Source: a virus
Reading direction: 5' to 3' (one strand)
Virus genome (UHGV): UHGV-0036483
DNA length: 54,587 nucleotides
Shown here: positions 14,791 through 15,561 of the stretch, piece after piece
Layout: every line of letters starts with the position of its first letter
Numbering within the stretch: position 1 is the first letter of the stretch
Notes under the pieces: model-generated
The model's input: the letters and a program-made list of their open reading frames with translations, nothing else
Databases searched by the model: none
What the model was told of the DNA's origin: nothing
Position numbers and translations under genes: made by a program

Positions 14791-14859
14791 ATGGTTACTT
14801 TCCTGTTAGGTTTATTTATCGGAATGGCTGCGGCTGTAATATTGCTGGTTGGTGAATAA
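14791..14859 (+). CDS. micro-ORF 1 of array, 22 aa (MVTFLLGLFIGMAAAVILLVGE)
   Basis: GGGGGTGA RBS, single hydrophobic helix. Confidence 0.3.
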   Translation: MVTFLLGLFIGMAAAVILLVGE

Positions 14860-14863
14860 TGTT

Positions 14864-14980
14864 ATGGATGATTATATCATTGCCGGATTGATCGGCATTT
14901 CTGTATATCTGGTGGGTTTTATTGCAGTTGCACTAATAAACGCAAAGATCAAGCGCTGGGTGGAGGGGCAAGATGATTGA
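14864..14980 (+). CDS. micro-ORF 2 of array, 38 aa (MDDYIIAGLIGISVYLVGFIAVALINAKIKRWVEGQDD)
   Basis: Hydrophobic helix plus charged tail; stop overlaps next start. Confidence 0.3.
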   Translation: MDDYIIAGLIGISVYLVGFIAVALINAKIKRWVEGQDD

Positions 14981-15047
14981 CCCGCTCGTTATCCTTTCTT
15001 TATGCGTCGCTGTATGGCTGGCGATCATGATATTCATTGAAAGCTGA
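14973..15047 (+). CDS. micro-ORF 3 of array, 24 aa (MIDPLVILSLCVAVWLAIMIFIES)
   Basis: Overlapping start; hydrophobic. Confidence 0.3.
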   Translation: MIDPLVILSLCVAVWLAIMIFIES

Positions 15048-15058
15048 AGGTATTCACC

Positions 15059-15133
15059 ATGAATATTTACGATCTCATCTGGTGGTCAGTGGTCGCCGTC
15101 ATTATCTATTTCTGGTGGAAGAATGTTGTATAG
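15059..15133 (+). CDS. micro-ORF 4 of array, 24 aa (MNIYDLIWWSVVAVIIYFWWKNVV)
   Basis: GAAGG RBS; hydrophobic. Confidence 0.3.
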   Translation: MNIYDLIWWSVVAVIIYFWWKNVV

Positions 15134-15141
15134 GTGACGGC

Positions 15142-15240
15142 ATGGATATATTCGAATTACTGGCGATTATGTGCGGAATGATGTTAGGCACTGTCGCCAT
15201 AATTATCATCATCGGCCTTGTTATGGGTAGCATCAAATGA
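15142..15240 (+). CDS. micro-ORF 5 of array, 32 aa (MDIFELLAIMCGMMLGTVAIIIIIGLVMGSIK)
   Basis: GGTGA RBS; part of ORF-track frame 15037..15240. Confidence 0.3.
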   Translation: MDIFELLAIMCGMMLGTVAIIIIIGLVMGSIK

Positions 15241-15317
15241 ACGCATACGAAATGCTATTGCTGGTGGCTGTTATTGCGGTTATTGCCGTTGATTTTTATC
15301 GAGGGTTAAAAAGATGA
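15237..15317 (+). CDS. micro-ORF 6 of array, 26 aa (MNAYEMLLLVAVIAVIAVDFYRGLKR)
   Basis: ATGA start/stop overlap; hydrophobic. Confidence 0.3.
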   Translation: MNAYEMLLLVAVIAVIAVDFYRGLKR

Positions 15318-15385
15318 GAGAGGCAGACTTCTTTTGCATGATTATAGTGATCGTCATCGTTGCGGTGCTTTTAAGCGTTAACTGA
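15314..15385 (+). CDS. micro-ORF 7 of array, 23 aa (MREADFFCMIIVIVIVAVLLSVN)
   Basis: ATGA overlap; hydrophobic. Confidence 0.3.
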   Translation: MREADFFCMIIVIVIVAVLLSVN

Positions 15386-15401
15386 ATCGCAGGAGTTAAA
15401 A

Positions 15402-15467
15402 ATGAAATGGCTTGATTTCTTTTTCCTGATTGTTGCGATTGTTATCACTATGGTGGCTTTATCGTAA
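15402..15467 (+). CDS. micro-ORF 8 of array, 21 aa (MKWLDFFFLIVAIVITMVALS)
   Basis: Canonical AGGAG RBS 6 nt upstream; hydrophobic. Confidence 0.35.
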   Translation: MKWLDFFFLIVAIVITMVALS

Positions 15468-15477
15468 TAAGGGAAAA

Positions 15478-15561
15478 ATGAAAGATCTATCCAGCTTGTT
15501 GGGTGTATCAATATACTTCGCAACATTAATTGAGTGTTTATATATAGTGAATAAATTTTAA
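15478..15561 (+). CDS. micro-ORF 9 of array, 27 aa (MKDLSSLLGVSIYFATLIECLYIVNKF)
   Basis: AAGGGA RBS; hydrophobic. Confidence 0.3.
   Translation: MKDLSSLLGVSIYFATLIECLYIVNKF

Follow-up and report, generated by a model that had tools for sequence, protein, structure and literature searches.

The 54,587-nucleotide (nt) genome of the virus UHGV-0036483, referred to here as the window, carries a tandem array of nine very short open reading frames (micro-ORFs) at positions 14791-15561, all on the + strand. These micro-ORFs are very likely genuine, selected protein-coding genes of the mEpimmI coliphages, each encoding essentially one transmembrane helix and evolving by duplication and by the gain and loss of cassettes. 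The best overall explanation of the array, to which we assign a probability of roughly 0.55, is that it specifies inner-membrane microproteins made late in infection, most plausibly affecting the state of the membrane or the timing of lysis. Comparison of related loci, together with the sequence itself, establishes the coding status of the micro-ORFs, the selection acting on them, their helix character, their cassette evolution and their position in the late operon.

The region matches seven phages at 88-91% identity (mEp021, mEp010, mEp013, mEp044, mEp515, mEp554 and MagusPhagus) as well as prophages in 35 of 5426 complete Escherichia coli genomes, and on the strength of these matches the window is assigned to a mEp021-like (mEpimmI) temperate coliphage. 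Phages of this group are Nus-dependent, non-lambdoid temperate coliphages, reportedly as prevalent in human faecal samples as the lambdoid phages (PMC11893012); the paper describing them makes no mention of the array region (PMC11893012). The comparisons below use a set of 70 loci, comprising the window, the seven phages, 14 prophages and 48 IMG/VR contigs.

Architecture and coding signals of the array

An earlier note, made from the letters of the window alone, had described nine consecutive same-strand ORFs of 21-38 codons in this interval, most with a recognisable ribosome-binding site and several linked by ATGA stop/start overlaps. Direct reading of the sequence confirms this description. 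The nine ATG-started ORFs lie head-to-tail and fill 92% of the 783-nt interval between the stop of an upstream gene encoding an HExxH protein (14788) and the ATG of the small terminase gene terS (15572). A purine-rich, Shine-Dalgarno (SD)-like motif is clear 5′ of eight of the nine; the motif of ORF6 is weak, but ORF6 overlaps the stop codon of ORF5. Two 4-nt ATGA overlaps join ORF5 to ORF6 (15237) and ORF6 to ORF7 (15314), ORF2 and ORF3 overlap by 8 nt (14973/14980), and gaps of 4-16 nt separate the ORFs at the remaining junctions.

Micro-ORF 1 (family A, 14791..14859) encodes 22 amino acids (aa), MVTFLLGLFIGMAAAVILLVGE, and begins 2 nt past the HExxH gene stop, with GGGGGTGA upstream; family A has DNA homologues in 31 of the 70 loci, all intact, with a ratio of nonsynonymous to synonymous polymorphism (pN/pS) of 0.49. 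Micro-ORF 2 (family B, 14864..14980; 38 aa, MDDYIIAGLIGISVYLVGFIAVALINAKIKRWVEGQDD) consists of a 22-residue core and a polar C-terminal tail, variants of which give 31-aa and 38-aa forms. Family B is found in 57 of 70 loci (pN/pS 0.44), and the exact ORF2 sequence appears in public collections solely as 'hypothetical protein'. Micro-ORF 3 (family C, 14973..15047; 24 aa, MIDPLVILSLCVAVWLAIMIFIES) is preceded by GGAGGGG; its family is intact in 66 of 70 loci and has a pN/pS of 0.16, with Pro4 and the C-terminal ES invariant and Asp3 almost so.

Micro-ORF 4 (family D, 15059..15133; 24 aa, MNIYDLIWWSVVAVIIYFWWKNVV) has counterparts in 47 of 70 loci and is intact in 45 (pN/pS 0.25). The junction 5′ of micro-ORF 5 (family E, 15142..15240; 32 aa, MDIFELLAIMCGMMLGTVAIIIIIGLVMGSIK) reads TAGGTGA, that is, a stop codon plus an SD motif; family E occurs in 34 loci, intact in 32 (pN/pS 0.24). 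Micro-ORF 6 (family F, 15237..15317; 26 aa, MNAYEMLLLVAVIAVIAVDFYRGLKR), whose start forms the ATGA overlap with the ORF5 stop, belongs to a family with a strongly conserved sequence, intact in 67 of 70 loci (pN/pS 0.22). Micro-ORF 7 (family G, 15314..15385; 23 aa, MREADFFCMIIVIVIVAVLLSVN) overlaps the ORF6 stop in the same manner, and its family is intact in 23 loci.

Micro-ORF 8 (family H, 15402..15467; 21 aa, MKWLDFFFLIVAIVITMVALS) carries AGGAG 6 nt upstream, as the earlier note had pointed out, and family H is intact in 65 of 70 loci, each of these copies being preceded by an SD-like motif (pN/pS 0.26). The least hydrophobic of the nine, micro-ORF 9 (family M, 15478..15561; 27 aa, MKDLSSLLGVSIYFATLIECLYIVNKF), terminates 10 nt short of the ATG of terS, whose SD motif GAGGTGA directly follows the micro-ORF stop. 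Family M is intact in 62 of 70 loci (pN/pS 0.36) and is kept even in the minimal, two-ORF array of locus L078.

Chance, or an artefact of base composition, was rejected as an explanation of the array on the basis of shuffling, codon-position bias and the frame-specific selection described below. Among 5000 dinucleotide-preserving shuffles of the region none contained nine hydrophobic ORFs (mean 1.3, maximum 6). Within the array ORFs, 56% of the bases at codon position 2 are T, compared with 23% at position 1 and 30% at position 3. Short ORFs with a strongly hydrophobic 17-residue stretch number 21 on both strands of the whole 54.6-kb window, and seven of these 21 fall inside the 771 nt of the array.

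The statement in the earlier note that no ORF over 67 aa occurs on either strand of this interval needs correction: on the minus strand, an ORF of 89 aa (15371-15640) spans the 3′ end of the array. We judge this ORF not to be a gene, as its length varies from 30 to 98 aa across 69 relatives.

Conservation and selection across related loci

A run of hydrophobic micro-ORFs occupies the same position in all 70 related loci. The earlier note had held that a lack of conserved ORF structure in related phages would speak against its reading, and conservation of that structure is thus complete in the set compared. Start codon and expected length are kept in about 98% of 584 DNA copies. Among the few decayed copies, the start codon has become ACG in family J at five loci and ATA in a single copy of family D; the others show two premature stops, a read-through and a fusion. 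Almost every copy has an SD-like motif upstream in 11 of 13 families examined, as do about half of the family B copies and 56 of 67 in family F. Neighbouring ORFs across the loci are for the most part spaced at -8, -4 or +4 to +17 nt.

Substitution patterns are specific to the reading frame. The pooled in-frame pN/pS is 0.32, and the same alignments read in the two shifted frames give 0.95 and 1.13. Individual families range from 0.16 to 0.56, the top value coming from family A4, which has two copies only, and pN/pS exceeds 1 in no family. The minimum numbers of changes at codon positions 1, 2 and 3 are 138, 113 and 261, respectively. For the flanking genes the corresponding ratios are 0.14 (terS) and 0.16 (HExxH gene). 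The low, frame-specific pN/pS indicates that the amino-acid sequences are under purifying selection, somewhat weaker than in the neighbouring genes. Invariant or near-invariant residues include, in addition to Asp3-Pro4 and the terminal Glu-Ser of family C, an 'AVD-x-YR' motif in family F and Asp5-Phe6 in families G, H and K. Conservation, in-frame purifying selection, SD motifs and operon-like packing all uphold the view in the earlier note that the ORFs are genes rather than products of chance.

These data bear directly on the idea that the peptides themselves are irrelevant, with the ORFs being either incidental or acting as coupled spacers or upstream ORFs that set the delivery of ribosomes to terS; in a variant of this idea, the region would matter as DNA, as a pac region. 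Tight packing and start/stop overlaps could indeed relay ribosomes from the HExxH gene to terS, and family M, next to terS, is near-universal. However, purifying selection acts on the amino acids and in the correct frame only, and the products are uniformly hydrophobic, with the strong T bias at codon position 2 noted above. Array length varies about fivefold, whereas terS is never lost. Furthermore, the strong SD motif that terS possesses after the last micro-ORF stop implies that its initiation is independent of the micro-ORF chain. Small terminases of the Sf6/P22 type recognise pac within or near their own gene, which argues against the variant. We therefore regard this idea as highly unlikely.

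Single-helix character of the peptides

The description of each product as almost entirely one transmembrane-like helix, given in the earlier note, is well founded. All nine peptides contain an uncharged hydrophobic core of 13-26 residues with an Eisenberg mean hydrophobicity <H> of 0.67-0.99, and the hydrophobic moments of these cores are low (0.03-0.22), indicating little amphipathicity. High hydrophobicity combined with a low moment is the signature of a membrane-spanning helix rather than of a surface-lying amphipathic one. The cores of ORF6 and of ORFs 4 and 9 are the shortest (13 and 15 residues) and could barely cross a bilayer unless flanking residues contribute. Most families share a common template, M-x-x-x-[D/E] followed by the hydrophobic core and often by a short basic tail. 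The N-terminal tails are acidic and several C-terminal tails are basic, which by the positive-inside rule suggests an N-out/C-in topology. Judged by sequence, the peptides thus have the attributes of small single-helix membrane proteins, namely a length of at most 50 aa, one predicted helix and an ORF under selection.

A similar layout is known from the Pf3 coat protein (44 aa), in which an acidic N-terminal tail, one hydrophobic helix and a basic C-terminal tail form the pattern of YidC-dependent, N-out insertion. Pf3 coat, however, is a structural protein of the virion of a filamentous phage, and nothing suggests a structural role for the array peptides. In size, in having a single helix and in their very short tails the peptides also resemble small inner-membrane proteins of at most 50 aa such as YohP, MgtS, AcrZ, CydX and KdpF. 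Members of this class likely insert post-translationally via the signal recognition particle (SRP) and YidC (PMC7549839), and act within the membrane on proteins or on the membrane potential. They are dispersed single chromosomal genes, usually stress-regulated and with their own promoters, whereas the array gathers 2-13 genes in one phage late operon. No sequence similarity between the array peptides and known small inner-membrane proteins was found in Pfam or NCBIfam.

Type I toxins (Ibs, ShoB, DinQ, TisB, Ldr and Hok) are likewise hydrophobic single-helix peptides of the inner membrane, 19-50 aa long, and some are prophage-borne (PMC12648545; PMC3567139). The earlier note had likened the array to such toxins and to small membrane-protein regulators. 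As far as size and hydrophobicity are concerned the likeness stands, with Ibs, ShoB, DinQ and TisB as matching examples (PMC12648545). Membership of a toxin-antitoxin system does not. Type I systems pair the toxin with an antisense RNA antitoxin and elaborate 5′-leader control; the array has neither, nor the room for them, as its ORFs lie 4-17 nt apart or overlap and long 5′ leaders are absent. No toxin family (Hok/Gef, Ldr, Ibs, TisB, ShoB or DinQ) matched in Pfam or NCBIfam at E ≤ 1, no RNA family was found, and no antisense promoter was detected in a consensus scan, which is not absolute. The successive hydrophobic segments could alternatively be the helices of a broken transporter gene, that is, fragments of one decayed multi-pass membrane protein. 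Selection, however, acts on every segment in the frame of that segment, each starts at a separate ATG behind a separate SD motif, and the segments come and go one by one among loci, a pattern not expected of a decayed gene. That the array represents type I modules or such fragments is extremely unlikely.

The nearest precedent for the architecture is found in Gram-positive bacteria. In the staphylococcal psm-alpha operon four genes in tandem encode peptides of some 21 aa each, and aureocin A70 is encoded by a multi-peptide operon of leaderless bacteriocins. As in the array, tandem micro-ORFs of about 20-30 codons are translated separately from one transcript. The psm-alpha and bacteriocin peptides are, however, amphipathic and secreted, whereas those of the array are uniformly hydrophobic (moment at most 0.22), show no cationic helix of high moment, and are encoded in larger arrays in the late operon of a coliphage.

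Cassette families and array evolution

The related loci encode at least 18 peptide families, of which the window array comprises A, B, C, D, E, F, G, H and M. The order of families is fixed in all arrays, and their presence or absence is cassette-like. Array size ranges from 2 to 13 ORFs with a median of 9, and 44 architectures occur among 65 loci. Natural cassette numbers in the isolated phages are 5 (mEp021 and mEp515), 7 (mEp013), 8 (mEp044) and 10 (mEp010 and mEp554). Four families are near-universal: DNA homologues of C, F, H and M occur in 62-67 of the 70 loci.

This variation in number bears on the possibility of a bulk effect, in which a dose of hydrophobic peptide loads the membrane or saturates SRP, YidC or Sec, for example halting the biogenesis of host membrane proteins, so that number would outweigh identity. 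The many redundant cassettes, their variable number, the looser constraint relative to the flanking genes (0.32 against 0.14-0.16) and the composition of the peptides, which are almost wholly transmembrane helix, are in keeping with such an effect, and SRP is scarce and easily saturated (PMC12648545). Invariant family residues, a fixed order and the near-universal presence of C, F, H and M would nevertheless be unexpected if dose alone counted, and minimal arrays of two or three ORFs would give very little of it. We consider a bulk effect distinctly unlikely.

The peptides had been called mutually dissimilar in the earlier note, which holds only in part, since several families are paralogous. 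ORF7 (G) and ORF8 (H) are identical at 11 of 21 residues (z 5.7), families G and K are similar at z 6.3, and H-K and D2-F form similarly close pairs. In total, 14 family pairs reached p ≤ 0.01 against composition-preserving shuffles, where 1.7 were expected; shuffling of whole peptides also destroys the layout of polar N-terminus and hydrophobic core, and the weaker pairs may thus reflect shared architecture rather than descent. Families E and I additionally share, at the DNA level, a 27-nt stretch (78% identity) that runs across the junction and the start codon, followed by a second similar segment. This repeat and the G-H, G-K, H-K and D2-F similarities are, on sequence grounds, the solid cases of paralogy.

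The junction TAGGTGA, in which a TAG stop is fused to GGTGA, is common to several cassette boundaries and is preserved where a cassette is missing. We infer that duplication and divergence enlarge the array and that it is edited by precise gain and loss of cassettes, probably through recombination at these short shared stop/SD junctions. Near-identical cassettes also occur beside HExxH proteins that are only 55-59% identical, one such locus carrying C, D, F, H, I, J and M and another K and M only, which points to cassette exchange between diverged genomes.

Fusions and hybrids of cassettes were also seen. Loss of a stop codon occasionally fuses neighbours, as in a 60-aa B-C fusion in locus L057 and a 55-aa extended E in L047 (in both loci the array lies upstream of position 3001), and chimeric cassettes occur, for example MELHEIIACVAFACVLYFWWKNVV with the C-terminus of family D. 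These forms illustrate how new variants arise.

Rapid turnover of this kind could also be the mark of an arms race, in which each micro-helix would inhibit a different membrane protein, for instance a component of the inner membrane required for DNA entry by rival phages, which would give superinfection exclusion, or a membrane-embedded abortive-infection effector. Several features are in line with such a conflict arsenal: the hypervariability of the array, with its 44 architectures in 65 loci that are otherwise about 90% identical, the birth of families by duplication and divergence, their narrow, lineage-restricted distribution, and family-specific conserved residues that suggest specific partners. 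The array also occupies an accessory-gene slot between the lysis and packaging modules, and the mEpimmI group is known for other exclusion functions, the Lpp lipoprotein and Rep (PMC11893012). On the other side, exclusion genes of temperate phages are normally on in the lysogen or expressed early, whereas the array shows no promoter-like site for prophage expression and has a terminator upstream. PADLOC gives no match and no family has a pN/pS above 1, and near-identical cassettes beside diverged HExxH genes look more like the exchange of useful parts than diversification driven by targets. We regard an arsenal as the most serious alternative to the reading we prefer, although it is less likely than not.

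Genomic context and expression

The array lies between the lysis genes and the packaging genes. Upstream, a class II holin gene (12775-12975; PF16080) is followed by a gene for a lysozyme-type, SAR (signal-anchor-release)-like endolysin (12976-13467) with a hydrophobic N-terminal segment of 28 residues, by Rz (13455-13925) and by the Rz1 lipoprotein gene embedded in it (13645-13857). Between Rz and the HExxH gene a hairpin with a U-rich tail (14084..14136, + strand) corresponds to an annotated terminator in mEp021 and mEp013; the 111-nt stretch around it (14040-14150) has a minimum free energy of -36.1 kcal/mol (z -4.0). The HExxH gene (14204..14788, + strand) forms the left boundary of the array. 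On its right lie terS (15572..16057, + strand; Sf6_terminase family, PF20901, E 1e-37), then terL and the gene for the portal protein.

A promoter-like site at 12616-12643 on the + strand (TGAACA-16-GATAAT) is followed about 90 nt on, from 12732, by a strong GC-rich terminator directly before the holin gene. This arrangement resembles the pR′-tR′ pair of lambda and by analogy implies that the late operon is controlled by Q-type antitermination. A simple consensus scan, which is not absolute, showed no sigma-70-like promoter on either strand in or just before the array; no strong terminator was found inside it, and the region has no Rfam match at E ≤ 1. On the simplest reading, the array would be transcribed in one way only, on an antiterminated late transcript shared with the genes for lysis and morphogenesis.

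Holins, antiholins and single-gene lysis proteins are, like the proposed array products, small phage membrane proteins that are made late and reside in the inner membrane near lysis. Known holins and antiholins are, however, typically at least about 60 aa long and encoded directly beside the endolysin gene, whereas the array peptides are smaller and the array starts 1.3 kb past the endolysin stop. None of the nine peptides matches a holin PHROG or Pfam family, and the phage's own holin (12775-12975) does. The absence of a family match, the small size and the distance from the endolysin led us to reject a holin identity for the peptides; the phage already has a full set of holin, endolysin and spanins.

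The HExxH protein (194 aa) matches phrog_1365, a family of unknown function, and the source of a homologue (59% identity) gives that protein the label 'PolyVal Metallopeptidase superfamily domain'. At its N-terminus the HExxH protein has a conserved domain, about 125 aa long and homologous to Orf129 of phage L, ST64T gp49 and HK620 HkcC, which are small proteins encoded by P22-like phages; its Ala/Glu/Lys-rich C-terminal tail varies in length, relatives being 157-211 aa long. Functional coupling of the array to this gene was considered and rejected, and their adjacency is treated as incidental, as the two are separable in relatives. The P22-like phages ST64T and HK620 have HExxH homologues (35-47% identity) without an adjoining array, and in mEp013 the HExxH gene and the array are separated by an HNH endonuclease gene (L007 1025-1510). 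The near-identical cassettes beside HExxH proteins of only 55-59% identity, described above, were a further ground for this rejection.

HNH endonuclease genes are inserted at other sites in further loci, between terS and terL in L078 (4750-5253) and between the endolysin gene and Rz in L079 (2252-2773). These variable insertions suggest that free-standing homing endonucleases are active in the region.

Small ORFs with membrane helices also occur in the early region of the window, on the + strand. Two of them, 624-731 (35 aa) and 739-855 (38 aa), stand in tandem, the first overlapping the stop of ORF 403-627 and the second the GTG start of 852-1127, and neither has a PHROG match. A 30-aa single-helix ORF (2585-2677) and a 78-aa two-helix ORF (3067-3303) lie further on. 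The phage may therefore use tiny membrane proteins beyond the array.

Distribution and annotation of the array

Relatives of terS fall into two sets, those at 80% identity or more, all from E. coli, and those at 53% or less, and no array was found in four distant terS relatives of the latter set. The relatives of family L come from E. coli only, all with at least 70% identity. Family B (ORF2) has nothing beyond its own cluster among 1.84 billion representative proteins, and degenerate DNA patterns for families C and F gave 0 matches in 100,044 species-representative genomes. No comparable micro-ORF run was found in lambda or T1, two genomes that say little on rarity. As far as these searches reach, the array appears confined to the mEpimmI group.

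None of the nine peptides has a match in Pfam, PHROGs, NCBIfam or PADLOC. The earlier note knew of no described nine-gene array of this kind, and we can add that neither these libraries and Rfam nor the literature searched, including reviews on small phage and membrane proteins, describe an array of 9-13 single-helix micro-genes. In the mEp021 record and in the RefSeq (PGAP) prophages examined the array interval, a stretch of 0.5-1.1 kb, is blank, and PHANOTATE-based records label some of its ORFs 'hypothetical protein'. A collection of 15 billion proteins holds none of the peptides of this interval below 30 aa, and those of 32, 38 and 47 aa appear in it solely as unnamed hypotheticals.

Several prophages carry an extra ORF of 47-48 aa between the array and terS (MNDEELKIADEIRKALDSAENNE...; L013 1962-2105, L014 1766-1909, L018 1655-1798 and L019 1758-1904). 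It is acidic, not hydrophobic, and is the sole ORF of the interval annotated by PGAP.

Proposed function

The gene order runs from the pR′-tR′-like pair through the class II holin, the SAR-like endolysin, Rz/Rz1, the terminator hairpin, the HExxH gene and the array to terS and terL. In the mechanism we propose, the peptides would be made late in infection from antiterminated transcripts that read through the hairpin, with the micro-ORFs translated as a coupled chain. The peptides would then insert into the cytoplasmic membrane, N-out/C-in as Pf3 coat does and via SRP/YidC as described for YohP, and would act there by helix-helix contacts or self-association. Translation, timing, membrane localisation and function are thus predictions drawn from the features described above.

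SAR endolysins and class II holins (pinholins), such as those of phages 21 and P1, are triggered by loss of membrane potential. This property, together with the probable co-transcription of the array just downstream of genes of both types, underlies the hypothesis that the peptides influence lysis timing. They would modulate the energisation of the membrane and hence the moment at which the upstream holin and SAR-like endolysin are triggered, with the number and mix of cassettes tuning that moment. We prefer this more specific proposal to others but put it forward tentatively, as a possibility well short of even odds.

Known membrane-active peptides of comparable size include DinQ, which has 27 aa. 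The equally short YohP (27 aa) of E. coli is inserted via SRP (PMC7549839), and at raised levels it depolarises the membrane through self-association (10.1101/2025.05.06.652344). DinQ is a toxic single-transmembrane peptide of the inner membrane that lowers the membrane potential (PMC3567139). Other small proteins, MgrB and AcrZ among them, act by binding other membrane proteins (PMC12648545), and small single-helix proteins readily evolve, de novo, as phage lysis effectors (PMC7693330).

A number of considerations weigh against a role for late-made peptides in membrane state or lysis timing. The adjacency to the lysis genes is loose, with Rz/Rz1, the terminator and the HExxH gene separating the array from the holin and endolysin genes, and the slot between lysis and packaging modules is a classic site of unrelated accessory ('moron') genes. 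As arrays span 2-13 genes, no cassette except those of the near-universal families C, F, H and M can be essential. The conserved residues, such as Pro4 in family C and D19-x-Y-R in family F, suggest specific partners rather than a generic effect on the membrane. Premature depolarisation would cut burst size, and a simple role as depolariser would therefore require careful dosage. The promoter scan was a simple consensus search, and expression in the lysogen remains compatible with its result. Support for the proposed role lies, moreover, at the level of sequence, from which translation, insertion and phenotype are predicted.

A broader idea, which we hold to be rather unlikely, sees in the array a library of minimal transmembrane helices that is combinatorial and quickly reshuffled, each helix binding or inhibiting a different membrane protein, be it a defence effector, a component of a rival's entry or part of the phage's own lysis machinery. 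New specificities would then arise through duplication and through cassette exchange at the shared stop/SD junctions. If this were true, the array would represent a new type of phage accessory locus, a membrane-embedded counterpart of anti-defence islands, with gene birth at the scale of 20 codons.

Significance

Small membrane proteins as such are known; what is new here is the architecture of the array with its cassette dynamics. Genes of 21-27 codons lie below the cut-off of most gene callers, and annotation gaps in prophages can thus hide dense coding. The array brings up to 13 micro-genes together at a single site, and comparison between loci clearly supports their being real. As the group can be cultured on E. 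coli K-12 and offers natural cassette variants, it provides a tractable system for studying the function of minimal helices, the birth and exchange of micro-genes, and the respective parts of lysis control and competition in the biology of these phages.

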